Shown: piece by piece, positions 1,569 to 53,060 of the stretch
Layout of the letters: every line of letters begins with the position of its first letter
How positions within the stretch are numbered: position 1 is the stretch's first letter
Assembly: GCA_040902725.1 (NCBI GenBank)
Contig: JBBDWU010000045.1
Span: 3,341-67,340 of the forward strand
Source of the DNA: Gaiellaceae bacterium
GTDB lineage: Bacteria > Actinomycetota > Thermoleophilia > Gaiellales > Gaiellaceae
Reading direction: 5' to 3'
DNA: 64,000 nt
Position numbers and translations under genes: made by a program
The notes under the pieces: generated by a model
What the model saw: the letters and a program-made list of their open reading frames with translations, nothing else
The model's database searches: none
Told to the model about the DNA's origin: nothing

Positions 1569-1586
1569 GTTCTCGAGGTTCGGCGC

Positions 1587-1616
1587 GGAAGCCCGCGCGG
1601 CCCCGGCGCGGCTTCC
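1587..1616. promoter_or_regulatory. Inverted repeat upstream of the vapB-like ORF (candidate operator)
   Basis: GGAAGCC(C)GCGC at 1587..1598 pairs with GCGCGGCTTCC at 1606..1616, giving 11 bp with one bulged C and a 7-nt spacer. It lies about 20 nt upstream of ATG 1568. The operator role is inferred from the usual autoregulation of TA operons. Confidence 0.3.
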
Positions 1617-1790
1617 CGACCGGTGCGGGCTGCCGGCAATCGCCGCGAAGCTCTCGACGACCCGGCGGGCGCCTTCGCCGGCAAGCGCTCCAGGTCACCC
1701 GCGGCCGGTACCGCGACGACGAGACGCCGGGCCCGCCCGCTCACCCAGCACGAGCGTGGCGGCGCAGCTGCTTTGGCGCATCATGATGCC

Positions 1791-6050: not shown

Positions 6051-6071
6051 CGTGCGAAAAGTCTCGCACTC

Positions 6072-6494: not shown

Positions 6495-6573
6495 GACTTT
6501 GCTCCGAGATCCTCGTCCGCCGCGCCGACCTGCGCGGCGCGGGGGGCGAGGCGCGCCTGAGAAGAAGGGGGCA

Positions 6574-6600
6574 CGTGGGGGAAACATGGTTTCCCCCACG
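6574..6600 (-). terminator. Perfect 12-bp palindrome hairpin downstream of gdh
   Basis: CGTGGGGGAAAC-atg-GTTTCCCCCACG is followed on the minus strand by a pyrimidine-rich tgcccccttcttctc. It sits between the gdh stop (6625) and the CBS gene start (6494). Confidence 0.55.
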
Positions 6601-6624
6601 GGAGCGAGGCGCAGCCGAGCGACC

Positions 6625-22919: not shown

Positions 22920-23993
22920 GTGGACGCAAACACGATCGTGGTGCTCGAGGGCGACGACACCGGGCAGGAGCTGCTCGAGGAGGCGCTGCGCGTGCTGGCA
23001 GCCGGCGTGATCGGGATCGAGCTCGAGTTCCCGCGGGTCGACCTCTCACTGGAGCGGCGGCGCGAGACGAAGAACGCGGTCGTGCACGAGGCGGCCGCGG
23101 CGATCCGCGAGGTCGGCATGGGCCTCAAGGCCGCCACGATCACGCCCGAGGGCGCGGACGACGTCGGCTCGCCGAACCGGATCCTGCGGGAGAAGATCGG
23201 CGGCAAGGTGATCGTGCGCACCGGGCGCCGGATCCCCGGCATCGTCCCGCTCGGCGGCGTCCACGCGCCGATCTCGATCGTGCGCATGGCCGTCGGCGAC
23301 GCCTACGGCGCCGAGGAGTGGCGCGAGGGGTCGGGCGACGACGAGGTCGCGCTGCGGACGGAGCGGATCGAGCGGCGGATCTGCCGCGCGGTCGCCGAGT
23401 ACGCCTTCCGCCTCGCCGAGCGCACGGGCGCGAAGGTCTTCGGCGGCCCGAAGTACACGGTCAGCCCGGTGTACGAGGGGATGCTGAAGGAGGAGATGGA
23501 CGCCGCCGCCGCGCGACACCCCGGCGTGCCCTACGAGCCGCAACTGATCGACGCGACCTTCGCCCTCCTGATCGCCGCGTCGGGCGACCCGCTCGTCATC
23601 CCCGCGCTCAACCGCGACGGCGACATCCTCTCCGACCTCGTCCTGCCGCTGTTCGGCTCGATCGCGGGCTCGGAGTCGCTCCTGATCGCGTTCGACGAGG
23701 ACTACGCGCCGCGCGCGCTGATGGCGGAAGCCGCCCACGGGACGGCGCCCTCGCTGCAGGGGAAGAACGTGGCGAACCCGATGGCGATGATCCTGGCGGG
23801 CGCCGCGCTGCTCGCGCACGGCTCGGACGAAGGCGCCCAGCAGGCGGGGCGCGCGATCCGCGAAGCCTGCCTGGAGGCGGTGGCGCAGGGCGTCCGGACG
23901 GCCGACCTCGGCGGCCACGCCTCGACGACCGAGTTCACGGACGAGGTGATCGGGCGCGTCCGCGCGAAGCTGGAGGTCTGGTCGGCCCTCTAG
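22920..23993 (+). CDS. Isocitrate/isopropylmalate dehydrogenase-family protein
   Basis: GDDTGQELLEEA..NRDGDILSDL..AEAAHGTAP..NPMAMILAGAALL. The GTG start at 22920 is preceded by TAACCT 7 nt upstream. Confidence 0.8.
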   Translation: MDANTIVVLEGDDTGQELLEEALRVLAAGVIGIELEFPRVDLSLERRRETKNAVVHEAAAAIREVGMGLKAATITPEGADDVGSPNRILREKIGGKVIVRTGRRIPGIVPLGGVHAPISIVRMAVGDAYGAEEWREGSGDDEVALRTERIERRICRAVAEYAFRLAERTGAKVFGGPKYTVSPVYEGMLKEEMDAAAARHPGVPYEPQLIDATFALLIAASGDPLVIPALNRDGDILSDLVLPLFGSIAGSESLLIAFDEDYAPRALMAEAAHGTAPSLQGKNVANPMAMILAGAALLAHGSDEGAQQAGRAIREACLEAVAQGVRTADLGGHASTTEFTDEVIGRVRAKLEVWSAL

Positions 23994-26458
23994 GCATCGA
24001 TGCCTGCCTCCTCGAGCGCCAGGTCGACGGCAGCGTCCGGAGTGAGTGCTCGGCCTTCATCCTGTGCGTCCGTCAGCGCGCGCTCGTCGAGGTGCGCGCC
24101 GATGGCGGCGAGCGTCTGCGCATTCCTCGCGGCAATCAACGCGGCGCTCGCCCCGGTCTCGCTGAACAGGCTCCCCGCGCATCCCAGGAGCCGGGCAGCA
24201 CCGGCCGGCGCTCGACCCGCGAGCGCCGTTGCCAGGACCGTCAGCAGGGTCGCGATCTCGTTTTGCGCGCCGAGGTTCCTCTGTATCGCGTACGCCCTCT
24301 TCAGCAGGGCGACAGCGCGATCGGTCTCGCCCTCGTCGCAAAGGGCTTCAGCCATCATGATCAGCGCGTTTGCCTCGATGCGCACCATTCCCGCCGCGCG
24401 CGCCCGCCTCAATACCTGCTCGTACGCCGCTCGGGAGCGGTCACGCTCACCGAGCATCAAGTCCATCCACCCGGCCACTGTCATGGCGAGCAGCTCGAAG
24501 TGCTCGTCACCTACCTCGCGAAAACGTCGCACGCTGTCTTCGAAGAGGGCACGCGCGTGGACGAGGTTCCCTTCCTCGCGGATCACCTGACCGAGCAGGA
24601 ATCCCGAGCGCGCGATTCCCCACGCATTGCCGAGCTCGCGGTTGATCGCCATCGCTTCGTCGGCGCGAGCCCTCGCAGTCATGATGTCGCCACATTCGAT
24701 CGCCGTGGCGGTCGCGCCGTTGAGGGCGATCCCACGCGCTGCGGTCCGCTGGGGGGATTGCGCCAGGACGGCTTCGAGGCGCCGCCGTCCCTCGGCAATG
24801 TGTCCCTTGATGTACCAGAAGTACCAGAGGGCGCCGGCGAGCCGTACCGCACGCTGCGCGTCGGCATCCTCGAGCCGATCGAGCGCCGCGCGGAAGTTGT
24901 CGCTTTCGCGTTCCATCGGCCCCAGCCAGTCCTGTGGCCTTGCCGCGACCTGCGGTCCAGCCTCCTCCGCGAGCGCGAGGAAGAACTCGGCGTGGCGCAG
25001 GCGGATGTCGTCCCCCTCGCCGGAGGCCTCCAGGCGCTCGGCGGCGAACTCGCGGATGGTCTCCAGCATCCAGAACCGCTCTCCCGTGTGGCGAACGAGG
25101 CTCTTGTCGACGAGCGACTGGAGATCGTCGAGGTCGGCTTCGCAGATGCCTTCGGCCGCCTCGAGGCTGCAGCCGCCGCGGAAGACGGCCAGGCGCGCGA
25201 AGAGCCGCTGCTCCTCCGGCCGCAGCAGCTCGTGGCTCCACTCGATGGTGGCCCGCAGCGTCTGCTGGCGCGGGTCGACCCCGCGGCCCGCCTTGAGCAG
25301 GTCGAGCCGCAGGGCGAGGCGCTCGAGGAGCTGCTCGGGCGAGAGCACGGCCACGCGTGCCGCCGCCAGCTCGAGCGCGAGCGGCAGCTGCTCGAGTCGA
25401 GCGCAGAGCTCGGGGACGGCGGCGCTCGCCTGGAAGTCGGGCACCGCTGCACGCGCCCGGGCGAGGAAGAGCTCCGTCCCCTCCTCGGGATCGAGCGGGG
25501 GCACCGCGTAGGCCTGCTCGCCGGGGACGCGCAGCAGCTCGCGGCTCGACACGAGCAGCTGGAGGTTCGGGCAGGCGGCGAGCAGTCCGGCCAGGCCGGG
25601 GGCGGCCTCGATCACGTGCTCGAAGTTGTCGAGCAGCAGCAGCAGCGACCGGTCGCCGATGTGCTCGGCCAGCCCGTCCTTGGCGCCAATCGCCGCTCCC
25701 GCAGTCTCCAGCACGAGCTGCGGGTCGCGGAGCGGCCCCAGCGGCACCCACCAGACGCCGTGCGGATGGTCGTCCGCGGCTCCCGCGGCCGCCTGAAGTG
25801 CCAGCCGCGTCTTGCCCGTCCCGCCCGGCCCCGTCAGGGTCAGCAGGCGGACGTCTCCGCGCCCGAGCAGGCCAAGCACCTCCTCGAGCTCCCGCTCCCG
25901 CCCGACGAACGGGGTCGCGGGAACGGGCAGGTTGGTCTGGTACAGGCTCTTCAGCGGCGGAAACTCGTCCGCGCCGAGCTGGTAGATCCGCTCCGGCGCC
26001 GACAGGTCTTTCAGCCGGTGCTCGCCCAGGTCGCGTAGGCCGTCCGGGTCGACCAACGCCGCCGTGGAAGCCGAGACGAGCACCTGCCCGCCATGCCCGC
26101 ACGCCGCGATCCGGGCCGCCCGGTGCACGTCAGCGCCCACGTAGCCCTCGTCCGTCACGTGCGGCGTGCCGGTGTGGATCCCCATCCGCACGCGGATCGG
26201 CCCGGCCGCCAGCCCCCCCAGCGCTTCGGCCGCCGCCCGCAGCGCGGCCGGAGCCGTGGGGAAGGCGACGAAGAACGCGTCCCCCTGCGTGTCCACCTCC
26301 ACGCCCGCGTGCGCGCCGAACGCGTGCCGCACGATCCGCCGGTGCTCGGCCAGGGCGGCTGCGTATCCCTCCGCCCCCAGCCCGTCCAGCAGCTTCGTCG
26401 AGCCCTCCACGTCCGTGAACAGGAAGGTCACCGTCCCCGCGGGAAGATCGCTCCGCAC
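23990..26458 (-). CDS. Class III nucleotidyl cyclase - NB-ARC/STAND ATPase - TPR protein (paralog 3)
   Basis: GTG 26458 gives VRSDLPAGTVTFLFTDVEGSTKLL..TQGDAFFVAFP..DVHRAARIAACGHGGQVLVS..FVGRERELEEV..LTLTGPGGTGKTRLA..LLLLDNFEHV..VSSRE..LPLALELAAA..MLETIREFA, followed by TPR repeats. The upstream portion of the 1130-aa track ORF is Arg/Pro-rich shadow. Confidence 0.9.
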   Translation of the reverse strand: MRSDLPAGTVTFLFTDVEGSTKLLDGLGAEGYAAALAEHRRIVRHAFGAHAGVEVDTQGDAFFVAFPTAPAALRAAAEALGGLAAGPIRVRMGIHTGTPHVTDEGYVGADVHRAARIAACGHGGQVLVSASTAALVDPDGLRDLGEHRLKDLSAPERIYQLGADEFPPLKSLYQTNLPVPATPFVGRERELEEVLGLLGRGDVRLLTLTGPGGTGKTRLALQAAAGAADDHPHGVWWVPLGPLRDPQLVLETAGAAIGAKDGLAEHIGDRSLLLLLDNFEHVIEAAPGLAGLLAACPNLQLLVSSRELLRVPGEQAYAVPPLDPEEGTELFLARARAAVPDFQASAAVPELCARLEQLPLALELAAARVAVLSPEQLLERLALRLDLLKAGRGVDPRQQTLRATIEWSHELLRPEEQRLFARLAVFRGGCSLEAAEGICEADLDDLQSLVDKSLVRHTGERFWMLETIREFAAERLEASGEGDDIRLRHAEFFLALAEEAGPQVAARPQDWLGPMERESDNFRAALDRLEDADAQRAVRLAGALWYFWYIKGHIAEGRRRLEAVLAQSPQRTAARGIALNGATATAIECGDIMTARARADEAMAINRELGNAWGIARSGFLLGQVIREEGNLVHARALFEDSVRRFREVGDEHFELLAMTVAGWMDLMLGERDRSRAAYEQVLRRARAAGMVRIEANALIMMAEALCDEGETDRAVALLKRAYAIQRNLGAQNEIATLLTVLATALAGRAPAGAARLLGCAGSLFSETGASAALIAARNAQTLAAIGAHLDERALTDAQDEGRALTPDAAVDLALEEAGIDA

Positions 26459-26490
26459 GGCGGCATCATGCCGCGAGACAGCCGCGCCCT

Positions 26491-27039
26491 CTAGGCCGTC
26501 GCGGCGAGCGCGGCGCCCTCGGCCCAGACGGCGAGGAACGTGTAGGCGATGCGCGGGTCGAACTGCGTCCCCGCGCAGCGCTCGATCTCCTCGAACGCGA
26601 CGCCCGGGTCGAGCGCGCTGCGGTAGGGCCGGTCGGAGGTCATCGCGTCGTAGGCGTCGGCGACCGCGAGCAGGCGCGCCTCGACCGGGATCGCCGTCCC
26701 CGCCAGGCCGCGCGGGTACCCCCAGCCGTCCCAGCGCTCGTGATGGCAGAGCACGTACGTCAGGGCGGCCTGCGCGGAGGAGAGCTCTTCGAGTAGGCGC
26801 GCGCCGGCGGCGGGATGCTGCTCGATCTCGGCCCGCTCGACCGCGTCCAGCGGCCCGGGCTTCCGCAGGATCTCGGGCGAGACCGAGAGCTTGCCGACGT
26901 CGTGGAGCGCGCTGCCGAGCCGCAGCCCCTGGAGCGGCCCGCCCTCCCAGCCGAGCCGGCGCGCGACCGGATCGGCGAGGGCCGCCACGCGCGCCGAGTG
27001 CTCGAAGATCGCGTCGACCACTGCCGGATGCAGTTCCAC
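26491..27039 (-). CDS. Stand-alone HD-GYP domain phosphohydrolase
   Basis: HSARVAAL..ALHDVGKLSV..HPAAGARLL..HHERWDGWGYPRGL..VADAYDAMTSDRPYR. The start is uncertain: I took GTG 27039, while the track start at 27156 would overlap the pntAA start. The stop lies 32 nt upstream of cyclase paralog 3. Confidence 0.8.
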   Translation of the reverse strand: MELHPAVVDAIFEHSARVAALADPVARRLGWEGGPLQGLRLGSALHDVGKLSVSPEILRKPGPLDAVERAEIEQHPAAGARLLEELSSAQAALTYVLCHHERWDGWGYPRGLAGTAIPVEARLLAVADAYDAMTSDRPYRSALDPGVAFEEIERCAGTQFDPRIAYTFLAVWAEGAALAATA

Positions 27040-27063
27040 GCGGGCGGCATAGACTCCTGCCCC

Positions 27064-28137
27064 GTGAGGGTCGGCGTCCCGAAGGAGAACGCTCCCGACG
27101 AGCGCCGGGTCGCGCTCGTGCCCGAGGCCGTCCAGAAGCTCGTCCAGAAGGGGCACGAGGTGGTGGTGGAGGGCGGCGCGGGCGCGGGCGCGTTGTTCGC
27201 CGACGAGGAGTACGAGGCCGCCGGCGCGGCCATCGGCGACCCCTACGACGCCGACGTCGTCGTCTGCGTCCAGCGGCCGAGCGAGGACGCTCTCCGCTCC
27301 GGAACGGTGCTCGTCGGGCTGCTCCAGCCGCTGGCCGAGCCGGAGGCGATCGAGCGGCTCGCCGAACGCGGCGTGACCGCACTCGCGCTGGAGGCCGTCC
27401 CGCGGATCACGCGCGCCCAGGCGATGGACGCGCTTTCCTCGCAGGCGACGCTCGCGGGCTACAAGTCCGTCCTGATCGCGGCCGACCGCCTGCCGCGGCT
27501 GTTTCCCATGCTGACAACGGCGGCGGGCACGGTGCGCCCGGCCAAGGTGCTCGTGCTCGGCGCCGGCGTCGCCGGCCTGCAGGCGATCGCGACCGCGCGG
27601 CGGCTGGGGGCGCGGACCTTCGGTTTCGACGTGCGGCCGGTCGTTCGCGAGCAGGTCGAGAGCCTCGGCGCCTCGTTCCTGGACCTCGGAATCGTCGGCG
27701 AGGAGACGGAGGGCGGCTACGCCCGCGAGCTGACGCCGGACGAGCAGCGGCGCCAGCAGGGGGAGCTCGAGCGGCGGCTGCCCGAGTTCGACGTCGTGAT
27801 CACGACCGCCCAGATCCCGGGGCGGCGCGCGCCGCGGCTGATCCCGGCCGCCGCCGTCGAGGCCATGCAGCCCGGCTCCGTGATCGTCGACCTGGCCGCG
27901 GAGACGGGCGGCAACTGCGAGCTGACCGAGGCGGGCGCCGAGGTGGTGCGCAACGGGGTCACGATCGTCGGGCCGACGAATCTCGCCGCCACCATGCCCG
28001 TCGACGCGAGCCGGCTCTACTCCCGGAACGTGAGCGCGCTGCTCGAGCTGCTCGCGCCCGACGGTGAGCTCCAGCTCGATTTCGACGACGAGATCGTCGC
28101 CGCCGCCTGCGTGACCCGCCGGCAGGTGCGCGCATGA
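27064..28137 (+). CDS. pntAA: NAD(P) transhydrogenase subunit alpha, part 1
   Basis: GTG 27064 gives VRVGVPKENAPDERRVALVP..VLGAGVAGLQAIATARRLGA, an alanine dehydrogenase/PNT fold. Confidence 0.9.
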   Translation: MRVGVPKENAPDERRVALVPEAVQKLVQKGHEVVVEGGAGAGALFADEEYEAAGAAIGDPYDADVVVCVQRPSEDALRSGTVLVGLLQPLAEPEAIERLAERGVTALALEAVPRITRAQAMDALSSQATLAGYKSVLIAADRLPRLFPMLTTAAGTVRPAKVLVLGAGVAGLQAIATARRLGARTFGFDVRPVVREQVESLGASFLDLGIVGEETEGGYARELTPDEQRRQQGELERRLPEFDVVITTAQIPGRRAPRLIPAAAVEAMQPGSVIVDLAAETGGNCELTEAGAEVVRNGVTIVGPTNLAATMPVDASRLYSRNVSALLELLAPDGELQLDFDDEIVAAACVTRRQVRA

Positions 28138-43808: not shown

Positions 43809-44046
43809 CGTTATCGGCGATCTCGACCGTGATGCGCTCGTGCGAGCGGGACGCGCTCGCGCGGATGACCGTGCGCAGCGCGCGCGCGATCCTGCCCTGG
43901 CGGCCGATCACCTTGCCCACGTCGTCCGGGGCAACGTGCAGGCGGAGGACGACGACGCCGTCGTCGCGCTCCTCGCGGTCGACCCGGACCGCGTCCGGCT
44001 CGTCCACGAGCCCGCGGGCCAGGTACTCGAGCAGGTCGGCGCTCAC
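43801..44046 (-). CDS. KH-domain RNA-binding protein (UPF0109/YlqC-like)
   Basis: [36 protein letters not shown] contains the GxxG KH motif. Confidence 0.88.
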
Positions 44047-44285
44047 CCCAGGTTCTTTGCCTTCAGCAAGCGGGCGACCGCCTCGGAGGGCTTCGCGCCC
44101 TTGCCGAGCCAGTCCTTGACCTTCGCCTCGTCGAACTCGATCAGCGACGGGTCGGGCTGCGGGTTGTACCGCCCGACGATCTCGATGAACTTGCCGTCCC
44201 GCGGCGAGCGGGAGTCGGCCACCACGACGCGGTAGATCGGGTTCTTCTTCGACCCCACGCGGGCCAGCCTCATGCGTACTGCCAC
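44043..44285 (-). CDS. rpsP: 30S ribosomal protein S16
   Basis: [42 protein letters not shown]. Confidence 0.95.
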
Positions 44286-44289
44286 AGAA

Positions 44290-45594
44290 TCACCTCCTCA
44301 CCGGCAATGCGGGAATGGTGCCCTTGCCGAGCTGTTTCATGACCTGCTCCATCTGCGTGCGCGCGCGCAGCAGCCGGTTGACCTGCTGGACGGACGTCCC
44401 GGAGCCGTGCGCGATCCGGCGGCGGCGGGCGCCGTCGATCAGCTCCGGCCGGCGGCGCTCCTGCGGCGTCATCGAGAGGACGATCGCCTCGACGCGCGCG
44501 AGCTCCCGCTCGTCCACGTCGACGTCGGCCAGCTGCGAGCCGATGCCCGGCACCAGCTTGAGGATCCCCTGGAGCGGCCCCATGCGGCGGATCATCTTCT
44601 GCGCGGCGAGAAAGTCGTCGAACGTGAACTTGCCGGCGCGGACCCGCTCCTCGAGCGCCTCCTGCTCGTCCTCGCCGATCGCCTCCTCGGCCTTCTCGAT
44701 CAGGGTCAGGACGTCGCCCATGCCGAGGATGCGCGAGGCCATGCGGTCGGGGTGGAAGTACTCGAGCTGGTCGAGCTTCTCGCCGGTCGAGGCCAGCTTG
44801 ATCGGCCGGCCGGTGGCGGCCTTGACCGAGAGGGCGGCGCCACCGCGGGCGTCGCCGTCCAGCTTGGTCAGGACGACGCCGTCGAAGTCGATCCGCGCCT
44901 GGAAGGCGAGGGCGACGTTGACGGCCTCCTGGCCGGTCATCGCGTCGAGGACGAGCAGCACGTTGTGCGGCTTCGCCTCGCGGCGCACGGCGGCCAGCTC
45001 CTCCATCAGGGCCTCGTCGACGTGGAGGCGGCCGGCGGTGTCGAGGATGAGGACGTCCTCCTCCGCCTGCGCGATGCCCGCGCGCACGGCCGCGATCGGG
45101 TCGGAGCGCTCCTCGGAGTAGACGGGGACGTCGATCTGGCGGCCGAGCTGTTCCAGCTGGTCGATCGCCGCCGGGCGCTGGAGGTCGGCGGCGACGAGCG
45201 CCGGCCGCTTCCCCTCCTTGCGCAGCAGCAGCGCGAGCTTCGCCGCCGCGGTCGTCTTCCCCGAGCCCTGGAGCCCGGCGAGCAGGACGACGGTGGGCGG
45301 GCGCCCGGCGAACGCGAGCTTCGAGCTGCCGGCGCCCATCAGGCTCGTCAGCTCCTCGTGGACGATCTTCACGACCTGCTGGCCGGGCGTGAGGCTCTTC
45401 GCGACCTCCGCGCCGAGCGCGCGCTCGCGCACGGCGGCGACGAAGTCGCGGACGACCTTCAGGTTGACGTCGGCCTCGAGCAGCGCCAGCCGGATCTCGC
45501 GCATCGCGCGCGCGAGCGACTCCTCGTCCAGGCGGCCGCGGCCGCGGACGTCGGCGAGGGCGTGCTGGAGCTTGTCTCCGAGGGCTTCGAACAC
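44290..45594 (-). CDS. ffh: Signal recognition particle protein Ffh
   Basis: An N-domain is followed by the G-domain motifs [14 protein letters not shown] and [10 protein letters not shown], then a Met-rich M-domain. Confidence 0.95.
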
Positions 45595-45665
45595 GGTCGC
45601 GAAGCGTAGCCGCCAGCCGCGTGGAGATACTGAGCGCTGTCCAGTCGTCTCGCAAGGAGGTAGTC

Positions 45666-45887
45666 ATGTCAGCGGAGCACGAGACTCGCGTCGCCAAGGT
45701 GGTCACGATCATCGGCACGTCGCCGGAGAGCTTCGCCAAGGCGGCGGCCGCGGCCGTCGAGGAGGCAGCGAAGACGCTGCGCGGCATCACGGGCGCGGAT
45801 GTCCTCTCGATGAGCTGCGGCGTCAATGACGGCCGGATCGTCGAGTACCGCACGACCGTCAACATCGCTTTCGGGCTCGAGCGCTAG
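45666..45887 (+). CDS. Dodecin-family small protein (73 aa)
   Basis: The SD aaggagg lies 5 nt before ATG 45666. The product is MSAEHETRVAKVVTIIGTSPESFAKAAAAAVEEAAKTLRGITGADVLSMSCGVNDGRIVEYRTTVNIAFGLER. This matches the dodecin beta-alpha-beta-beta pattern (V.E..GTSP.S...A...A...A.KTLR......V......V.DG.I.EYR..V...F). Confidence 0.75.
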   Translation: MSAEHETRVAKVVTIIGTSPESFAKAAAAAVEEAAKTLRGITGADVLSMSCGVNDGRIVEYRTTVNIAFGLER

Positions 45888-45932
45888 CTGACCTAGTAGG
45901 CGAACCAGCACGGGCGTCCTACACTCGGCGGC

Positions 45933-48824
45933 ATGACCGCCTCGCCCCCTTCGGCGAGCCGCCGCACCGTCACCGTCCTCTTCTGCGACGTCGTCGACTC
46001 GACGCCGCTCGGGGAGCGCCTCGACGCGGAGACCCTGCGGCGGGTCCAGACCGAGTACTTCGCAGCGGTGCGGGGCGTGCTCGAGCGGCACGGCGGCCTC
46101 GTCGAGAAGTTCATCGGGGACGCGGCCATGGCCGTATTCGGCCTGCCCACACTGCACGAGGATGACGCGCTCCGCGCCGCCCGCGCCGCGTCCGAGCTCG
46201 GCGCGGCCGTCCTGCCGATCGACCGCGAGCTCGACAGGGACCACGGCCTGCGGCTGAGAATCCGGGTCGGAGTCGCCACGGGCGAGGTCGTCACCGGCGA
46301 TCCGGCCGGCGGCCAGGCACTCGCCACGGGCGAGACGGTCGTGACGGCCCAACGCCTCGAGCAGGCGGCTCGGCCCGAGGAGGTGCTCGTCGACGACCCG
46401 ACCTACCGCCTGATCGCGGACGCCGTCGACGCCGAGCCGGTCGAGGCCGTCGCCGCGAAGGGCAAGACCGAGCCCGTCGCGGCCTGGAGGTTGCTGGGGG
46501 TCGAGACGGGCGCGCTGGGCGTGGCCCGCCGCTTCGACACGCCGCTCGTCGGTCGCGAGAGCGAGCTGGCCGCGTTGCGCGGCGCGCTCGAGCGGGCCCT
46601 CGCGGGGCGCCGCTGCCAACTCGTGACCGTGGTCGGGCAGGCGGGCGTCGGTAAATCGCGCCTCGTGCGCGAGTTCCTCCTCGAGGCCGGGCCGGCGGCA
46701 ACGGTGCGGATTGGACGCTGCCCGCCCTACGGCGACGGCATCACCTTCTTGCCCGTCGCGGAAGTGCTCCCGGACGAGACGCTCGAAGGCACGACGGACG
46801 AGATCTTTCGGCGCGTGCGCAAGAGCTTCGAGCAGCTGGCCGAGCGAGGACCGCTCGTTCTCTGCTTCGACGACGTTCACTGGGCGGAGCCGACCTTCCT
46901 CAACCTCGTCGATTACCTGAAGGGCTGGATCGTCGCTGCCCCGGTCCTGATCGTTTGCCTGGCTCGCCCGGAGCTGCTCGACGAGCGACCCGAGTGGCAG
47001 CAGTCGAGCCTCTCGCTGCCGCCGCTCTCCCCGGCGGAGATCGAGACCCTGCTCGATGCGCTCGATGCGCCTGCGGAGGCCCGTGGCCGGATCGCGGAAG
47101 CCGCCGAGGGGAACCCCCTCTTCGCCGAGCAGGTGGCGGCGATCGCCGTCGACGAGGGCTCGGAGTTCGTCGTGCCGCGCTCGATCCAGCTCTTGCTTGC
47201 CGCTCGGCTCGACCGGCTCGCGGCGAGCGAGCGCTCGGTCGCGGAGTGGGCGGCGGTCGTCGGGCGCGAGTTTCCCCTGCGGGCGGTGGCGGCCCTTGCG
47301 CCGGAGGAGATGCGCGCCGAGGTCGCAGGGCACCTGTTCGCACTGCTCCGCAAGGACCTGGTCGAGCCGCACGCCGGCCTCTTTTGGGAGGAGGACGGCT
47401 TCCGCTTCCGGCACGGCCTCATCCGCGATGTCGCGTACGAGGGAATCCCGAAGGAGGTGCGCGCCGAGCTCCACGAACGCTACGCGCGCTGGTACGACCG
47501 CTACCACGGCGAGGACGTGATCGTCGGCTATCACCTCGAGCAGGCGTTCCGGTACCGGCAGCAGCTCGGGCGTGTCGACGAGTCCCTGGGGGAGGAGGCC
47601 GGGCGCTGCCTGGCGGTCGCGGGCCGGCGAGCGTTCGCGCGCCAGGACACGCCGGCCGCGACCAAGTTGCTCCAGCGAGCGCTCGCGCTCCTACCGAAAG
47701 ACGACCCGGAGCGGCGCGAGCTCATGCGCGAGGAGAGCATCGCCCTCTGGCTCGGCGGCGAGGCCAGAAAGAGCACGGCGGTGCTGGACGAGCTGCTCGA
47801 GTTGGCGGTCGAATCCGGCGACAGGCGGATGGAGTGGTACGCGCTGCTCGAGCGCGCCCACCGCCGCACGATGATCGACCCCGGAGCCACCGCGGACGAG
47901 CTCCTCGCCGTGACGGAGCAGGCGATCGCGGTGTTCGAGGAGCTCGGGGACGAGTCCGGCCTCGCCCAGGCCTGGCGGCGCCGCTCGCTGGCCCCGCGAG
48001 GGCAGGGGGACTTCGCCACGGCCGAGGAGGCACTCGAGCGGGCGTACGTCCACGCCCGCAAGGCGACCGACCGCCAGGAGCAGGGCCGGACGATCGACGC
48101 CCTGTGCGGCATCCTCCTTTACGGCCCGGCCCCCGTCGACGCCGCCCTCCGCCGCTGCGACGAGCTGCTCGAGGCCGCCGGCGGCGATCTGCTCGCCGAG
48201 GCTTGCGTGCTGAGGACGACCGCGGCGCTGCGCGCGATGCGGGGAGAGTTCGGGCTGAGCCGCTCGCTTTGCGCCGGCGTCAGGGAGACGTATCAGGATC
48301 TGGGGCTCCGCCTCGCGCTCGTCGCGCTGGCGGAGATCGCGGGTGGGATCGAGCTGCTCGCAGGGAACGCGGCGGAGGCGGAGGTCGCTCTGCGTGGGGG
48401 CTACGAAATCCTCTTCGCCATGGGCGACGCCACCGTCGTCGCCTTCCAGGCGGGCCTGCTCGCCGAGACGGTCGCGCTGCAGGGGCGGCTGGAGGAGGCG
48501 GAGGAGCTCGTCCGGCGCGCCGAGGAAGGGGCTGCCGAGGACATTGGCGCCCAGATCCACTGGCGCGCCACGAAGGCGGCCATCGAGAGCCTGCGCGGCC
48601 GGCACGACGCCGCGATCGAGCTCGCGCGGAAGGCCGTCGAGATCGCGGCCGGCACCGACGCTCTCAACATGCACGCCGGTGCCGCCCTCCGGCTCGCTGA
48701 GGTCCTGAGGCGCGCAGGCCGGCTCGAGGAAGCAGCGCGTTCGGCGAGCGACGCAGTGCGCCTGTACGAGCACAAGGGGAACGTCGTGGCCGCCCGCGCC
48801 GCCCTTCCGTCCGTGGCGGTTTAG
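45933..48824 (+). CDS. Class III nucleotidyl cyclase - AAA(AAA_16-like) ATPase - TPR protein (distant paralog 4)
   Basis: VTVLFCDVVDSTPLGERLD..EKFIGDAAMAVFG..RIRVGVATGEVV..GETVVTAQRLEQAA (cyclase). Then LVGRESELAALRGAL..VVGQAGVGKSRLV (Walker A)..LCFDDVHWAE (Walker B), followed by a long TPR-like C-terminus. TACACT lies 7 nt upstream of ATG 45933. Confidence 0.9.
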   Translation: MTASPPSASRRTVTVLFCDVVDSTPLGERLDAETLRRVQTEYFAAVRGVLERHGGLVEKFIGDAAMAVFGLPTLHEDDALRAARAASELGAAVLPIDRELDRDHGLRLRIRVGVATGEVVTGDPAGGQALATGETVVTAQRLEQAARPEEVLVDDPTYRLIADAVDAEPVEAVAAKGKTEPVAAWRLLGVETGALGVARRFDTPLVGRESELAALRGALERALAGRRCQLVTVVGQAGVGKSRLVREFLLEAGPAATVRIGRCPPYGDGITFLPVAEVLPDETLEGTTDEIFRRVRKSFEQLAERGPLVLCFDDVHWAEPTFLNLVDYLKGWIVAAPVLIVCLARPELLDERPEWQQSSLSLPPLSPAEIETLLDALDAPAEARGRIAEAAEGNPLFAEQVAAIAVDEGSEFVVPRSIQLLLAARLDRLAASERSVAEWAAVVGREFPLRAVAALAPEEMRAEVAGHLFALLRKDLVEPHAGLFWEEDGFRFRHGLIRDVAYEGIPKEVRAELHERYARWYDRYHGEDVIVGYHLEQAFRYRQQLGRVDESLGEEAGRCLAVAGRRAFARQDTPAATKLLQRALALLPKDDPERRELMREESIALWLGGEARKSTAVLDELLELAVESGDRRMEWYALLERAHRRTMIDPGATADELLAVTEQAIAVFEELGDESGLAQAWRRRSLAPRGQGDFATAEEALERAYVHARKATDRQEQGRTIDALCGILLYGPAPVDAALRRCDELLEAAGGDLLAEACVLRTTAALRAMRGEFGLSRSLCAGVRETYQDLGLRLALVALAEIAGGIELLAGNAAEAEVALRGGYEILFAMGDATVVAFQAGLLAETVALQGRLEEAEELVRRAEEGAAEDIGAQIHWRATKAAIESLRGRHDAAIELARKAVEIAAGTDALNMHAGAALRLAEVLRRAGRLEEAARSASDAVRLYEHKGNVVAARAALPSVAV

Positions 48825-48857
48825 GCTGCGCCAGGCCGTCGAGAGAAGGGAGACACG

Positions 48858-49082
48858 ATGTGGTTCAGCAAATGGCTGAGGAGCGGGGCCGAGTTCAAGG
48901 GTGAGGCGGAGAACTCGATCGAGGACGCGGTGCACGCAGCCGTCGAGGACGCGGCGAACAAGGGACAGCTCGGCACCGGCGACCGCTTCAAGGTCAAGCA
49001 CATCCGAGGCCGCGTCGGTGCGCACGACTCGCCGTGGCACATCACGTACAGCGCCGTGATCGAGAAGGAGCCGCGCAGCTAG
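48858..49082 (+). CDS. Dodecin-fold-like small protein (74 aa), hypothetical
   Basis: The SD aagggag lies before ATG 48858. The product is MWFSKWLRSGAEFKGEAENSIEDAVHAAVEDAANKGQLGTGDRFKVKHIRGRVGAHDSPWHITYSAVIEKEPRS. The strand-helix-strand-strand order and the FKVKHIRGRVG segment resemble mycobacterial dodecin (..FEVQSIRGHLVDG.., from memory). Confidence 0.5.
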   Translation: MWFSKWLRSGAEFKGEAENSIEDAVHAAVEDAANKGQLGTGDRFKVKHIRGRVGAHDSPWHITYSAVIEKEPRS

Positions 49083-50015
49083 TCAGTCTGCGAGCAATGC
49101 CCGGGCGAAGTCCTGCGGGTCGAAGGGCCGCAGGTCGTCGATTGCCTCGCCCACGCCGACGAGCGTGACGGGGAGCTCGAGCTCGTGCGCGATCGCGACG
49201 GCGATCCCGCCACGGGCGGATCCGTCCAGCTTGGTCAGCGCGACTCCGGTCACGCCGACCGCGTCGCGGAACTCGCGCGCCTGCTGGAGGCCGTTCTGGC
49301 CGGTGGTCGCGTCGACGACGAGCAGCGTCTCGTGCGGCGCGCCCTCCAGCTTGCCCGCGAGCACGCGCCGTACCTTCGCCAGCTCCTCCATGAGGTTGCG
49401 CTGGGTGTGCAGCCGGCCGGCGGTGTCGACGATCACGACGTCGTGGCCGCCGGCCCGCTCCAGCGCGTCGAAGGCGACCGACGCAGGGTCGCCGCCCTGC
49501 CGGCCGCCGACGAACTCTGCTCCCGCCCGCTCGGCCCAGATCTCCAGCTGCTCCTCCGCGGCGGCGCGGAACGTGTCCGCGGCGGCCAGCAACACCGAGC
49601 GCTCGTGGGCTCGGAGCGCGTGGGCGAGCTTCCCGATCGTCGTCGTCTTGCCGGTGCCGTTGACGCCGACGACGAGGATCACGCTCGGCTTGGCGCTCAC
49701 ATCAAGCGTTCCCGGCTCCCCGAGCATGGCCGCCAGCTCCTCGGCGATGTCGTCGATGCCGCCCCGCGCCTCGAGCCGCCGCACGAGCTCGGCCGTCGCG
49801 GGCACGCCCACGTCTGCGCCGATCAGCGCCTCCTCGAGCCGCTCCCAGGCCGCGTCGTCGGCGGGATCGAACGCCGCGAGCGCGAGCTGCTCGGTGAGGG
49901 CCCGCCGGCTCTTCGCCAGGGAGTCGCGCAGCCGGCCGAAGACCCCACGCCGCTCCTCCTCGGTCTCCGGGGGCGCTGCGCCGTCGCCGAGCAGCTCTGC
50001 CCAGCTTCTCGCCAT
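49083..50015 (-). CDS. ftsY: Signal recognition particle receptor FtsY
   Basis: A short N-terminal region is followed by the NG domain: GVNGTGKTTTIGKLA, DTAGRL, TKLDGSARGG. Confidence 0.95.
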   Translation of the reverse strand: MARSWAELLGDGAAPPETEEERRGVFGRLRDSLAKSRRALTEQLALAAFDPADDAAWERLEEALIGADVGVPATAELVRRLEARGGIDDIAEELAAMLGEPGTLDVSAKPSVILVVGVNGTGKTTTIGKLAHALRAHERSVLLAAADTFRAAAEEQLEIWAERAGAEFVGGRQGGDPASVAFDALERAGGHDVVIVDTAGRLHTQRNLMEELAKVRRVLAGKLEGAPHETLLVVDATTGQNGLQQAREFRDAVGVTGVALTKLDGSARGGIAVAIAHELELPVTLVGVGEAIDDLRPFDPQDFARALLAD

Positions 50016-50037
50016 CCCCCAACGCTAGCCTCAGCGC

Positions 50038-50370
50038 GTGCTCACTTGGGAACGAGTCGCCGAGGTCGCCCACGAGCTCCCTGAGGTCGAGGACTCGACC
50101 TCGTACGGCGCCCCGTGCTTCCGCGTGGCGGGGAAGGCCTTCGCCGGCGTCTCGCGCCACGAGGGCGGGATCTGGGCCCGCTGCGACCGCGAGGAGCGGC
50201 CGCTGCTCGTCGCGTCGAACCCGGAGCTCTACCGGCTCACGCCGCACTTCGAGCGTTCGCCCGGCTATCTGCTGATCTGGCTCGAGCACGCGACCGAGCA
50301 GGACGTGCGCGAGCGCCTCGAGGATGCCTGGCTGATCCAGGCGCCGAAGCGCCTCCTGCCTAGGCTGTAG
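50038..50370 (+). CDS. MmcQ/YjbR-family protein
   Basis: MLTWERVAEVAHELPEVEDSTSYGAPCFRVAGKAFAGV..LEDAWLIQAPKRL. TAGCCT lies 6 nt upstream of GTG 50038. Confidence 0.7.
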   Translation: MLTWERVAEVAHELPEVEDSTSYGAPCFRVAGKAFAGVSRHEGGIWARCDREERPLLVASNPELYRLTPHFERSPGYLLIWLEHATEQDVRERLEDAWLIQAPKRLLPRL

Positions 50371-50383
50371 CGAGCGCCGCGCG
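50360..50383. repeat. Left copy of a 24-nt direct repeat (a duplicate of the smc 3' terminus)
   Basis: CTAGGCTGTAGCGAGCGCCGCGCG matches 50589..50612 (CTAGGCCGTAGCGAGCGCCGCGCG) at 23 of 24 positions. Both reverse complements read RAALATA-stop. Confidence 0.85.
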
Positions 50384-50409
50384 GTCTGCGCGGGGCAGCC
50401 GCCGCCGCG

Positions 50410-50431
50410 ACACTCTCGCCACACTCTCGCG
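50410..50431. repeat. Tandem 11-mer
   Basis: acactctcgcc and acactctcgcg are adjacent, with 10 of 11 positions identical. Confidence 0.8.
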
Positions 50432-50445
50432 CGCCTTTCGACCCC

Positions 50446-50531
50446 GGGGTCTGACCCCGTATCGCAAGTCGCAATCCGCCCAGGTGCAGGTGAATTGGCC
50501 CGGCGCTCGACACCGCATGGGGTCAGACCCC
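50446..50531. repeat. 13-nt inverted repeat pair (REP-like palindromic units) spaced 60 nt apart
   Basis: GGGGTCTGACCCC (50446..50458) and GGGGTCAGACCCC (50519..50531) are exact reverse complements. Each unit is itself nearly palindromic. Confidence 0.8.
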
Positions 50532-50588
50532 TGTTACAGAAGTCACACAAGCGTCACGCCGCTCTGCAGTACCGGCGGCCGCAAAGAA

Positions 50589-50612
50589 CTAGGCCGTAGC
50601 GAGCGCCGCGCG
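50589..50612. repeat. Right copy of the 24-nt direct repeat (the genuine smc 3' end)
   Basis: See 50360..50383. Confidence 0.85.
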
Positions 50613-53060
50613 ATCTTCCTGCGGCAGGCGCCGCGAGACGATCTCGGACACGCCCTCGGCGCCCATCGTGACGCCGTAGAGCACGTCGGCGGCCTCCATC
50701 GTCCGCTTCTGGTGCGTGATCACCACGAACTGGGCCCGGTCGGCGTAGCGTCGCAGCAGCTCGACGAAGCGGCCGATGTTCGCGTCGTCGAGCGCGGCCT
50801 CGACCTCGTCGAGCAGGTAGAAGGGGCACGGACGCGCTAGGAAGAGCGCGAACAGGAACGAGATCGCGCCGAGGGCCTTCTCGCCGCCCGAGAGCAGGGA
50901 GAGTCGGGTGATGCGCTTGCCGGCGGGCCGCAGGTGCACCTCGATGCCGTCCTCGGTGAGCTCGAGCCGCCCCTCGCCGCCGGGGAAGAGCGTTGCCGCG
51001 ACCTCGGCGAAGTTGGCGCGGACGGCGGCGAAGGTCTCCGCGAAGCGCGTCTCGACCGTCTCGGTGAGCTCGTCGCGGAGCTGCTCCAGCTCGTGCAGGC
51101 TCGTCTCCAGGTCCTCGCGCTTGGCCGCGAGCTCCTCGAGCCGCTCCTTCTCGGCCGCGTACTCCTCCTTGGCGAACGGGTTCACCTGGCCGAGCGACTC
51201 AAGGCGGCGCGCGAGCCGTTCCGCCTTCTCGGCCAGTGCGTCGCGGTCCTCGCCCTCGACCGGGTCGGCCCCGGCGGCCTCGAGGCGGCGCTTGGCCTCG
51301 TCGGCTTCCGCCTCGATCCTCGCCCGCTCGACCTCGACGGCCGACGAGCCCTCGGCGGCCTCGGCAGCCTCCCGGCGCAGCTCGGCCTCCGCGCCCCCGA
51401 GCTCGCGCAGCCGCTCCGCGAGCTCCTGCGTCCTCGTCGCGCCCGCATCGACCCGCGCCCGCAAGGGCGCCTCGAACCGGCCGGAGGCGCCGTCGGCGGC
51501 CTCGATCGCGGCGAGGAGGCGATCGACGGCGGCGTTCAGACGCCGCCCCACGGCCGGCTCGATCCGAGCGGTCGGCCCGGCTTCCGGGGCCTGGGCGGCC
51601 GCAGCCTCGAGCTCCTCGGCCTCGGCCGTGAGCGCCCGCCGCCGCGCCTCGAGCTCGAGCAGCACGACCTCCGCGGTCTCGCCGGCGAACCAGAGCTCTC
51701 CCCGCCCGGGGTCGTAGCCGAAGCCTTCGCTCGTTACCGCCGGGGCGGTCGACGCCAGCAGCTCGTCCAGCGGCACGACGGGCAACAGCTCCGGGGGCCG
51801 GGTGAGCACGACGAGCGTCCCGAGCCCCGCCGACCGCGCCTGCTGGAGCAGCGCGAGCGCGGCGCCCGCGTCCTCCGCGACCAGTGCGGACGCGCGCCAG
51901 CCGAGCGCGGCCGCGACCGCCTTCTCCTCGCCCGGCTCGACGCGAAGCTCGTCGAGCGCCAGGCGGCAGCCGCGCTCCGCGAGCGCGCGAGCCGCGGGCG
52001 GTAGTCCCTCGCGCTCTGCCAGCGAGCGCTCGAGCGCGGCCAGCCGCTCGCGCACCAGCCCTGCGCGCTCCTCGAGCGCGGCCCGCGAGGGCCCTTCGTA
52101 GCCCGTCGCGCGGTCGGGGACGTCAACCCGTAGCCCCTCCGCCTGCTCTCTTCGCAATGCCAGCCGCTCGCGCGTCCCCGTGAGCCGGTAGAGCGCTGCG
52201 GTGGCCGCCTCGCGCCGGCCCGCGGCGTCGGCGAGCTCCTCCTCCGCCGCCTCGCGCTCCCCGAGCACGCCTTCGAGCCGTTCGTCGACGTGGCGGCGGG
52301 CGAGTTGAGCCGCGAGCCGCCGCTCGTCGGTCGCGGCCAGTCGCTCCTCGCATGCGGCGAGATCGAGCTCGGCGAGCCGGGCGCGGTGGGCGGCGAGCTC
52401 GACCGCGACCCGCTCGGAGCGCTCGGCAGCCGTGGCCTGGAGCGCCAGCGGCCGCAGCCGCTTCTTGACCTCCGCCTCGACGTCGCGGGCGCGCTCGACC
52501 TGGATCTGGACGCGCGCGAGCTTCAGCTCGGCCCGGTGACGCCGGCGCTTGAAGCGCCCGAGCCCGGCAGCCTCCTCCACGAACTCGCGCCGCTTCTCGG
52601 GCGTCGAGGCGAGGATCTCCTCCACCTTGCCCTGGCCGATGATCGAGTGCATCCGGCCGCCCAGGCCGAGGTCAGCGAGCAGCTCGACGACGTCCAGGCG
52701 CCGCACGGAAGCCCTGTTGACGAGGTACTGGCCCTCGCCGCCCCGGTGGAGCCGGCGGATGATCGAAAGCTCCGAGAAATCGATTGGGCCGTCGCCGTCG
52801 GCGTTGTCGAAGAGCAGCTCGACCTCGCAGTAGTCGGCCTGCGTGCGCCCGCCGCCGCCCGCGAAGAGCACGTCGTCAGGCTTCTCGGCGCGGAGCTCCG
52901 TGGGCGCCAGCGAGCCGGCCGCCCACACGATCGCGTCGGCCACGTTCGACTTGCCCGACCCGTTCGGGCCGACGACCACGGCGACGCCTGGCTCGAGGCG
53001 GACCTCGACCGGGTCGGGGAACGACTTGAAGCCACGCAGCTTGATCGCGCTGAGATGCAC
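50589..53060 (-). CDS. smc: Chromosome partition protein Smc, unusually short (823 aa)
   Basis: GTG 53060 gives MHLSAIKLRGFKSFPD..VVGPNGSGKSNVADAI (Walker A). A hinge-like segment AALGWRASALVAEDAGAALALLQQARSAGLGTLVVL lies around aa 385-420. The C-terminal head has LSGGEKAL (signature) and FYLLDEVEAALD (Walker B). It is one uninterrupted ORF. Confidence 0.9.
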   Translation of the reverse strand: MHLSAIKLRGFKSFPDPVEVRLEPGVAVVVGPNGSGKSNVADAIVWAAGSLAPTELRAEKPDDVLFAGGGGRTQADYCEVELLFDNADGDGPIDFSELSIIRRLHRGGEGQYLVNRASVRRLDVVELLADLGLGGRMHSIIGQGKVEEILASTPEKRREFVEEAAGLGRFKRRRHRAELKLARVQIQVERARDVEAEVKKRLRPLALQATAAERSERVAVELAAHRARLAELDLAACEERLAATDERRLAAQLARRHVDERLEGVLGEREAAEEELADAAGRREAATAALYRLTGTRERLALRREQAEGLRVDVPDRATGYEGPSRAALEERAGLVRERLAALERSLAEREGLPPAARALAERGCRLALDELRVEPGEEKAVAAALGWRASALVAEDAGAALALLQQARSAGLGTLVVLTRPPELLPVVPLDELLASTAPAVTSEGFGYDPGRGELWFAGETAEVVLLELEARRRALTAEAEELEAAAAQAPEAGPTARIEPAVGRRLNAAVDRLLAAIEAADGASGRFEAPLRARVDAGATRTQELAERLRELGGAEAELRREAAEAAEGSSAVEVERARIEAEADEAKRRLEAAGADPVEGEDRDALAEKAERLARRLESLGQVNPFAKEEYAAEKERLEELAAKREDLETSLHELEQLRDELTETVETRFAETFAAVRANFAEVAATLFPGGEGRLELTEDGIEVHLRPAGKRITRLSLLSGGEKALGAISFLFALFLARPCPFYLLDEVEAALDDANIGRFVELLRRYADRAQFVVITHQKRTMEAADVLYGVTMGAEGVSEIVSRRLPQEDRAALATA

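Follow-up and report, generated by a model that had tools for sequence, protein, structure and literature searches.

A cyclase-STAND-TPR gene and a small downstream gene of predicted dodecin-like fold in the ffh-ftsY interval of Gaiellaceae

Proteins in which a cyclase is joined to a STAND-type ATPase and tetratricopeptide repeats (TPR) are very numerous in Actinomycetota, and nothing was found in the literature searched on what their TPR sensors detect. Three are encoded in the DNA analysed here, a 64-kb stretch (contig JBBDWU010000045.1; hereafter the window) from an uncultured member of the Gaiellaceae (Thermoleophilia, Actinomycetota). The gene of one of them, a protein of 963 residues, lies between the signal recognition particle (SRP) genes ffh and ftsY, preceded by the gene of a 73-residue protein (P1) and followed by that of a 74-residue protein (P3). 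In the STAND NTPase MalT, the conformation of the sensor arm and oligomerization are set by ligands and by the partner proteins MalK, MalY and Aes. In the RNPP pairs (Rap-Phr, PlcR-PapR and NprR-NprX), the gene of a cytoplasmic TPR receptor is followed by a small gene, often with an export signal, and the two co-diversify. The mycobacterial class IIIc proteins Rv0386, Rv1358 and Rv2488c resemble the 963-residue protein in their N-terminal cyclase, MalT/AAA_16-type P-loop ATPase and TPR repeats; Rv0386 has been described as a class III cyclase with a MalT-like P-loop ATPase and TPR (bioRxiv 10.1101/2024.03.06.583649).

The window protein departs from each of these systems. The Rv0386 type carries a C-terminal LuxR helix-turn-helix (HTH) domain, whereas no HTH domain was found among the Pfam matches of the 963-residue protein at E values of up to 1 and its catalytic asparagine is replaced by valine. 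It also has a dedicated downstream small gene and a putative leaderless promoter; the text consulted describes no such partner for Rv0386. With MalT it shares the principle of a partner-controlled STAND protein and a match to the TPR_MalT model, but its output would be a cyclase rather than DNA binding, and its partner, the interaction with which is only proposed, has a predicted dodecin fold. The likeness to the RNPP pairs consists of a small gene behind a TPR gene, export signals in some of the small proteins and joint diversification. We treat this analogy as a lead only: P3 would be a folded domain of ∼60 residues and not a short processed peptide, the window copy has no export signal and no oligopeptide importer is linked to the window locus. 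Pycsar systems likewise place behind a class III-like cyclase a small gene that in some cases encodes a transmembrane helix, and the window cyclase is matched by the PycC model; they differ in that P1 and P3 give no cyclic-nucleotide-binding Pfam match, the window cyclase is part of a larger protein with STAND and TPR regions, and the genomic context is one of housekeeping genes with a vertical pattern of divergence.

The small proteins are to be compared with the dodecins, which form hollow dodecamers and bind their ligands in that state only. In characterized dodecins two isoalloxazine rings are sandwiched between symmetry-related tryptophans (PMC7414021), and the flavin-pocket tryptophan of Rv1498A is Trp39 (PMC8044443). 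P1 agrees with the dodecin family (Halobacterium salinarum, Thermus thermophilus, Streptomyces and Mycobacterium tuberculosis Rv1498A and Rv0379) in length, in its full-length match to the hidden Markov model (HMM) and in its pattern. P3 has the same predicted topology as dodecins and differs from them in its own HxSPWHITY core, a β3 strand shorter by about three residues and an arginine in place of the tryptophan; most members of its family are not recognized by the Pfam dodecin model and some have an N-terminal hydrophobic anchor, a feature not known from characterized dodecins. No literature linking a dodecin or dodecin-like protein with an adenylate cyclase was found.

We propose, and give this reading about an even chance, that P3 is a dedicated partner of the TPR sensor of the STAND cyclase, where it would gate ATP-dependent oligomerization and the pairing of cyclase domains, and that P1 is a separate dodecin lacking the flavin-stacking tryptophan. 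The features concerned are as follows.

45654-45660, + strand: Shine-Dalgarno sequence AAGGAGG of P1, 5 nt upstream of the ATG at 45666, read from the sequence
45666-45887, + strand: P1, 73-residue dodecin-family protein (Pfam PF07311), with Gly43 replacing the flavin-stacking tryptophan
45897-45925, + strand: probable cyclase promoter, with a -35-like TAGGCG (45897-45902), a 17-nt spacer and a -10 box TACACT (45920-45925), 7 nt from the ATG
45933-48824, + strand: cyclase/STAND ATPase/TPR protein of 963 residues (Pfam matches), without a Shine-Dalgarno sequence
45960-46472, + strand: cyclase catalytic domain, residues 10-180 (Pfam Guanylate_cyc PF00211, E 1.2e-17)
46542-46919, + strand: AAA_16/STAND nucleotide-binding domain, residues 204-329 (Pfam AAA_16, E 4.2e-18)
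47613-48821, + strand: C-terminal helical-repeat (TPR-like) sensor region, residues ∼561-963 (TPR_12, TPR_2 and TPR_MalT), the fast-diverging half
48841-48851, + strand: Shine-Dalgarno sequence GAGAAGGGAGA of P3, read from the sequence
48858-49082, + strand: P3, 74 residues, short form without a membrane anchor, HxSPWHITY family with a predicted dodecin-like fold

The three genes are thus the + strand content of the ffh-ftsY interval, with gaps of 45 nt and then 33 nt. A preliminary description of the window had reported this layout, the Shine-Dalgarno sequences of both small genes and the TACACT box 7 nt before the cyclase ATG, and all of its coordinates and sequence strings proved exact.

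Related loci compared with the window carry L-numbers as labels and fall into the following arrangements.

Type a, ffh / (Macro) / dodecin, cyclase, P3 family / ftsY: the window, L010, L012-L013 and L015-L017
Type b, the island and order of type a with a different-looking protein of 56-64 residues and a 'GTNPxN' motif in the third slot: L002 and L003
Type c, ffh / cyclase, small protein, dodecin / ftsY: L104-L107, L022, L024, L025 and L054
Type d, cyclase then P3 at an unrelated site, no dodecin: L018-L021, one further contig, L102 and L103
Type e, ffh / dodecin alone / ftsY: L108-L112
Type f, unrelated context, with a dodecin 85% identical to P1: L005-L008

In all 19 P3-family loci besides the window, which represent ∼11 distinct sequence types, the gene directly upstream of P3 on the same strand is a cyclase orthologue or a C-terminal fragment of one, and a P3-family gene away from a cyclase gene was found in none of the 19. 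The cyclase-P3 pair is a stable unit, present without exception in two genomic contexts and three gene orders; the type d site adjoins genes for UDP-glucose dehydrogenase and an epimerase. The small protein of type c is a clear HxSPWHITY member in L104-L107 and a divergent one with an 'HNPIH/NPLHEY' motif in L022, L024, L025 and L054. The divergent slot proteins keep the predicted helix-hairpin pattern of P3, and HHalign of the slot open reading frames (ORFs; L002, L003, L022, L024, L025 and L054) against P3 gave 52% probability (P 1.5e-4), which is suggestive of homology. Recurrence of the three-gene set in relatives had been put forward as a check, and the set does recur. The idea that two dodecins bracket the cyclase as one unit is weakened by other loci, in which the dodecin stands alone, lies downstream of cyclase and P3 or is missing. 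Because the dodecin and the cyclase-P3 pair each occur without the other, we read the bracketing largely as a resident gene juxtaposed with a two-gene module.

Identity to the window copies is 85-88% for ffh, 76-86% for ftsY, 69-95% for the dodecin and 49-68% for the cyclase, and ranges from 64% down to unalignable for P3. The fastest-diverging part of the cyclase gene is the TPR half. In L002 and L003 the cyclase domain (72-76% identical to that of the window) and the dodecin (89-95%) are well conserved and the TPR region is only 38-41% identical, the identity of the cyclase protein dropping from 55-80% to 35-45% from about residue 570 onwards; these two loci with a diverged TPR region are those in which the P3 slot holds the other small-protein type. 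Over ten loci, pairwise identity of P3 follows that of the TPR region (Spearman 0.81, Mantel p ∼0.0002) and not significantly that of the cyclase domain (Spearman 0.21, p ∼0.10), and the partial correlations separate the two further (0.84 for P3 and TPR given the cyclase domain, -0.04 for P3 and the cyclase domain given TPR). Co-variation of this kind is expected from a co-evolving sensor-partner pair, although as a sign of one it is ambiguous. The preliminary suggestion that the small proteins are partners of the TPR sensor thus gains indirect support for P3, whose identity tracks that of the TPR region, but many members of the P3 family appear to be anchored or exported. Exchange of a cassette from outside the clade was considered as a source of the divergence and set aside, as the overall divergence of the cyclase roughly parallels that of ftsY; the TPR-plus-P3 segment of L002 and L003 alone looks replaced or accelerated.

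The cyclase gene very probably has its own promoter within the 45-nt spacer, with a putative leaderless start. In an alignment of the 90 nt upstream of the cyclase start from eight loci, including the dodecin-less L018 and L019, the sequence CCTAnACTCG is invariant 6-7 nt upstream of an invariant ATG. Near-identical -10 boxes are found 6 nt from the start in the cyclase-P3-dodecin loci L104, L024 and L054; in L022 and L025 the box is a TAnAGT variant at a greater distance from the start. The conserved TAnACT box was seen in most of the loci checked, with all three gene arrangements represented. The 17-nt spacing from the TAGGCG box is shared by the other ffh/ftsY-island loci except L022 and L025 and becomes 27 nt in L018 and L019; TAGGCG might serve as a -35 element or as an operator. 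Leaderless mRNAs occur in actinobacteria, and a TANNNT box placed about 7 nt ahead of the start codon is consistent with such a transcript. A generic scan of 45400-49300 for σ70 promoters and terminators detected none of either, so that the promoter call rests on conservation across loci and not on a consensus score. This conservation 6-7 nt from the ATG, in most of the loci checked and in every arrangement, strengthens the earlier suspicion of a leaderless promoter. Read-through from P1 may occur but is not needed for transcription of the cyclase.

The 963-residue protein matches Guanylate_cyc with 64.5 bits (cut-off 21.9) and AAA_16 with 66.8 bits (cut-off 32.6). The STAND domain contains a Walker A motif, GQAGVGKS, at residue 235 and a Walker B-like LVLCFDD. 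The TPR models (residues 880-946) match with E values of 2.8e-6 to 2.2e-4, none of them reaching its gathering score. In alignments with solved cyclases and orthologues, both metal-binding aspartates are kept in the window protein (FCDVVDST and IGDAAM) and in all orthologues, and the lysine (EKFIGD) and the transition-state arginine (AQRLE) are present. A three-residue deletion in the cyclase domain takes out the site of the second base-specifying residue; the base-specifying lysine is kept. The transition-state asparagine (VNxAxR) is a valine in the window (GETVVTAQRLE, compared with GREVNLASRLE in CyaB), as it is in L002, L003, L010, L012, L015 and L018; it is an alanine in L022 and L025 and an asparagine in L104 and L105. 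Retention of the asparagine in the last two loci implies descent of the family from a canonical cyclase. Because of the valine, catalysis by the window cyclase is doubtful or altered, and its output is probably weak or altered.

Cyclase orthologues in L009-L021 are 65-68% identical to the window protein. A scan of GTDB genomes with the cyclase returned no close orthologue and homologues of at most 52% identity, the best of which exposed the cyclase-P3-dodecin gene order. The preliminary description had called the protein a distant cyclase-AAA-TPR paralogue, which the Pfam matches and two further, distantly paralogous cyclase-AAA_16-TPR genes in the window (23990-27382 on the - strand and 1623-4322 on the + strand) support. 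Both of these paralogues have a histidine at the position of the catalytic asparagine and no lysine in the xKxxGD motif. HMMs of the P1 and P3 families found no further copy of either in the window, including beside the two paralogues, and neither small protein beside any of 75 more distant cyclase homologues in other genomes.

Relatives of P3 are extremely rare. A word-indexed search with P3 alone returned only P3 itself, an exhaustive phmmer search over 1.84 billion representatives found three true relatives and a profile search of a 5.8-billion-protein set gave 23 P3-family clusters. The members share an invariant core (H26, V29, G41, F44, H56, S58, P59, H61, I62, T63 and Y64) within the motif 'GDRF...G.VG.HxSPWHITY', by which P3 is recognized as a real conserved gene; judged from these sequences, it defines an unnamed small-protein family that current profile libraries do not see. 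Three histidines (H26, H56 and H61) are invariant in 23 of 23 members, alongside S58, P59, T63 and Y64, a pattern suggestive of an interface or of a site for a metal or ligand. P3 proteins occur in a short form of 64-84 residues and a long form of 100-110 residues, about half of the members being long. The long form has an N-terminal hydrophobic stretch of ∼20 residues with Arg/Lys before it and an acidic segment after it; we know of no N-terminal hydrophobic anchor in characterized dodecins. Long and short copies stand in tandem in L009 and L015-L017. The window copy is of the short form, and its stop-to-stop frame allows just 11 extra upstream residues.

P3 is predicted to be dodecin-like in fold, as a monomer. 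AlphaFold2 gave a β-α-β-β model both from the single sequence, with a predicted local distance difference test (pLDDT) score of 68, and from an alignment of 23 sequences, with a mean pLDDT of 79 and a core above 90; the model has strands at residues 13-17, 44-54 and 61-70 and a helix at residues 21-34. In a Foldseek search of the PDB with this model, ranks 1-28 were all dodecins (probability 0.89-1.0) with target-normalized TM-scores of 0.47-0.68; the best matches had TM-scores of 0.62-0.68 and root-mean-square deviations of 2.7-3.0 Å over ∼62 columns. The T. thermophilus dodecin is 32% identical to P3 in the structural alignment and is also the PDB match of the P3-family profile (E 0.0098). 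When the P3 family was compared by HHalign with a diverse set of aligned dodecins, the probability was 81.5% (P 1.1e-5, 51 columns). With the confident core of the model and the 28 best PDB matches, the earlier view of the 74-residue protein as a divergent dodecin is supported at the level of prediction; remote homology is probable, the profile comparisons giving a mixed picture. Arg43 of P3 (GDRF) aligns with the tryptophan of LDWF in the T. thermophilus dodecin, so that the flavin tryptophan is missing. The match of P3 to the Pfam Dodecin model is partial (positions 6-45 of 64; 22.4 bits against a cut-off of 22.5, E 1.5e-4), and NCBIfam DodecBact gave 20.6 bits against a cut-off of 75. A recent duplication of P1 was considered as the origin of P3 and set aside: BLASTP aligns just 19 residues of the two (E 0.028). 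A repeat search of the DNA gave GC-rich chance matches save for one similarity in the helix-coding parts, where the DNA of helix α1 in P1 (45741-45772) and P3 (48927-48958) is 81% identical over 32 nt; such a similarity may reflect shared ancestry or simply Ala/Glu-rich, GC-biased coding.

In the mechanism that we propose, the 963-residue protein would be a STAND-type switch with a cyclase output, an AAA_16 ATPase and a long TPR-like sensor, transcribed as a leaderless mRNA from its own conserved promoter. P3, which has its own Shine-Dalgarno sequence, would most likely be co-transcribed with it, and would bind the TPR sensor as a ligand, co-sensor or anti-activator. By this binding P3 would control the nucleotide-dependent oligomerization of the STAND module and with it the cyclase-domain pairing that class III cyclases require. 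The analysis shows the gene structures, family matches, linkage, promoter box and co-variation, together with a predicted fold; that P3 binds the TPR region, is transcribed with the cyclase and affects its activity is inferred, as is any oligomeric state. On this reading, one member of a very large, orphan class of STAND cyclases gains in P3 a concrete candidate for its ligand or partner, and the HxSPWHITY family would add to the dodecin fold; should P3 fail to bind the sensor, what is left is a lineage-specific gene neighbourhood.

Several points weigh against this reading. The whole arrangement lies within a single family, and inherited synteny could account for part of it. A single recombination tract, or shared fast drift over the contiguous TPR and P3 DNA, could give the same co-variation as a co-evolving pair. 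Under the positive-inside rule the long-form P3 domain is placed outside the cytoplasm, extracytoplasmic or secreted and hence away from the cytoplasmic TPR region, and the only P3 of L010 is of the long form. At the sequence level the homology of P3 to dodecins is borderline: against the narrow P1 subfamily, the P3 family reached an HHalign probability of just 11.5%, and the Pfam Dodecin model matched none of 14 other P3-family or slot proteins scanned. The change of asparagine to valine may leave the cyclase barely active, in which case the output of the module becomes ambiguous. Finally, the window copy of P3 may be under weak constraint, its ratio of nonsynonymous to synonymous substitution rates (dN/dS) being elevated at 0.43-0.92, compared with 0.26-0.7 for other members; dS is likely to be compressed by the G+C bias at third codon positions.

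An extension of the proposal would turn the exported forms to account. The dodecin fold could have been re-used as a signalling partner, with the P3 proteins as self-encoded, co-diversifying ligands of cytoplasmic and exported kinds, so that the module would read whether the small protein has been exported; we consider this decidedly unlikely. Were it true, the cyclase-P3 module between the SRP genes would be a monitor of secretion or envelope status, or a receptor/'pherotype' pair, with a nucleotide second messenger as its output.

P3, and perhaps P1, might instead have been re-tuned from flavin to nucleotides and act as a buffer, sponge or receptor for the cyclic nucleotide made by the cyclase, which we regard as unlikely. 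The ligands of dodecin oligomers are planar heterocycles and, for some oligomers, the ADP moiety of CoA, which speaks for such a role, as do the nearly invariant GDRF (arginine for tryptophan) with the three invariant histidines, which suggest a conserved ligand site, and the position of P3 directly behind a cyclase gene, like that of effector genes in cyclase-based systems, with PycC-like matches on the cyclase. The type of P3, however, tracks the TPR region and not the cyclase domain; P3 persists where the catalytic asparagine is valine or alanine, its long form is predicted to be extracytoplasmic and Pfam scans revealed no known cyclic-nucleotide-binding fold or motif.

Absence of any functional coupling is improbable to a similar degree. 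P3 would then be an independent, often exported protein kept adjacent by vertical inheritance, its co-variation with TPR a product of contiguity and drift, and P1 a mere neighbour. All of the loci come from one family-level clade, the Gaiellaceae and relatives, the TPR-coding region is contiguous with P3, dN/dS of P3 is high in the window lineage and the long forms are apparently exported, as this explanation would have it. Yet the pair is kept in two unrelated contexts and through rearrangement of the island, none of the 19 loci has a P3-family gene away from the cyclase and the gaps are short, equipped with a Shine-Dalgarno sequence and in most loci without room for a promoter. Moreover, loci in which the sequence has become unrecognizable still have a small ORF in the slot, with a predicted helix-hairpin pattern like that of P3.

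P1 is clearly a dodecin-family protein by its match to Pfam PF07311 (E 9.1e-21, 74.4 bits against a cut-off of 22.5), which spans positions 1-64 of the 64 in the model, and it is dodecin-like in length and β-α-β-β pattern; the profile check that had been proposed for the 73-residue protein thus came out in favour of its assignment. It falls below the cut-offs of both NCBIfam dodecin equivalogs (NF043052 and NF041389; 47.1 and 47.6 bits against 75 and 100) and by these profiles is not an equivalog of the characterized flavin dodecins. In the PDB alignments Gly43 of P1 aligns with the flavin-stacking tryptophan of 6ri3 and 2vkf (Trp36, 38 or 39 in solved dodecins), and all seven relatives of P1 that were aligned also have glycine there. 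The scores of P1 against the flavin dodecin 6ri3 (32.0 bits) and the tryptophan-less calcium dodecin Rv0379 (3onr; 31.4 bits) are nearly equal. On its sequence, P1 is a new member of the dodecin family that lacks the tryptophan. A homologue search returned 2749 proteins, of which the best 120 are 77-95% identical to P1, and close relatives carry the source annotation 'flavin-binding protein dodecin'. Many such entries from soil Thermoleophilia have no flavin-binding residue, and their annotation for that reason overstates function. The dodecin occurs between ffh and ftsY without a cyclase in L108-L112, and the 85%-identical dodecin of L005-L008 is at an unrelated site; the home of P1 is the ffh-ftsY gap, which it occupies in this clade with or without a cyclase gene, and its position next to the cyclase may be mainly a matter of location. 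The two could still be tied more loosely in function, because in the cyclase-P3-dodecin order of L104-L107, L025 and L054 the dodecin follows 10-22 nt behind the small protein and apparently shares an operon with it.

These properties bear on the coupling of flavin or redox status to the cyclase, suggested in the preliminary description, in which two dodecin-fold proteins would bind or buffer flavin (or CoA) and report to the cyclase. In its favour, P1 does belong to the dodecin family, its close relatives are annotated as flavin-binding, and dodecin and cyclase are adjacent in two different gene orders. The coupling is nevertheless very unlikely and the suggestion was not borne out: the tryptophan that sandwiches flavin is replaced in both proteins (by glycine in P1 and its seven aligned relatives and by Arg43 in P3), P1 at ∼47 bits is far from the equivalog cut-offs and as similar to Rv0379 as to a flavin dodecin, and dodecin without cyclase and cyclase without dodecin both occur. 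An Rfam scan of 44000-50600 at E values of up to 1 gave no match, so that there is no FMN or other riboswitch in the region.

Least probable of all is an anti-phage defence system with an Avs-like STAND sensor, a Pycsar-like cyclase effector domain and a small, sometimes membrane-anchored downstream effector, for which the STAND and TPR architecture, the hypervariable sensor region, PADLOC matches of PycC type on the cyclase domain (E down to 8e-14) and the small protein with a single transmembrane helix downstream in many loci could be cited, but any class III cyclase would give such PADLOC matches, no PADLOC model matches P1 or P3, P3 has no cyclic-nucleotide-binding domain, the catalytic asparagine is gone in most lineages, the module sits in a housekeeping island (smc-ftsY / ffh-rpsP) and the divergence of the cyclase (49-68% identity) roughly parallels that of ftsY (76-86%), which suggests vertical inheritance rather than mobility.

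The borders of the island are conserved genes called from their ORFs.

44290-45594, - strand: ffh (SRP54), left border of the island, divergent from P1
49083-50015, - strand: ftsY (SRP receptor), right border of the island, convergent with P3

The ffh orthologues of L002, L010, L012 and L015, at the 85-88% identity given above, have SRP54 Pfam domains, and the ftsY orthologous loci (76-86%) give SRP54-family Pfam matches. The host cluster consists of housekeeping genes on the - strand: smc (50589-53060), ftsY, ffh, rpsP, a KH-domain gene, rimM and trmD. G+C in the region is 70-75%. The nearest named relatives of the genes at the locus are from metagenome-assembled genomes (MAGs) of Gaiellaceae; DNA of the locus is present in metagenomes of sediment, groundwater, permafrost and soil, and the sequence runs that hold it are of DNA metagenomes only.

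The stop codons of P3 and ftsY abut (49080-49085 of the window) with no spacer, and in L012 they overlap by 4 nt (6204-6207); this convergence leaves no room for a terminator between the two transcripts. Between ftsY and smc, on the strand opposite to both, lies an ORF of 110 residues (50038-50370, + strand), and a gene of 110-114 residues at the same position in L002, L012 and L108 carries the Pfam domain YjbR.

Relatives with the dodecin-cyclase-P3 order have a gene for a Macro-domain protein of 163-167 residues between ffh and the dodecin, divergent from the dodecin.

L002 5480-5971, - strand: Macro-domain gene
L010 2173-2664, - strand: Macro-domain gene
L012 2233-2733, - strand: Macro-domain gene
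L015 1938-2429, - strand: Macro-domain gene

The window has no such gene, only 71 nt lying between 45594 and 45666, and it was either lost or never there.

In L022, a contig of a Gaiellaceae MAG, two cyclase ORFs of 975 residues stand in tandem (974-3901 and 4864-7791), separated by the small slot ORF and part of a dodecin gene, which could be a tandem duplication or an assembly artefact. In a different clade of cyclase-STAND paralogues, from other MAGs, a conserved ORF of 116-123 residues is regularly found downstream.

L026 7269-7622: 116-123-residue ORF
L027 6019-6369: 116-123-residue ORF
L030 7237-7596: 116-123-residue ORF
L032 7220-7591: 116-123-residue ORF
L033 7247-7618: 116-123-residue ORF
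L039 6274-6627: 116-123-residue ORF

By eye this ORF looks like an XRE-type HTH protein and may be another small partner gene behind a cyclase of this kind.

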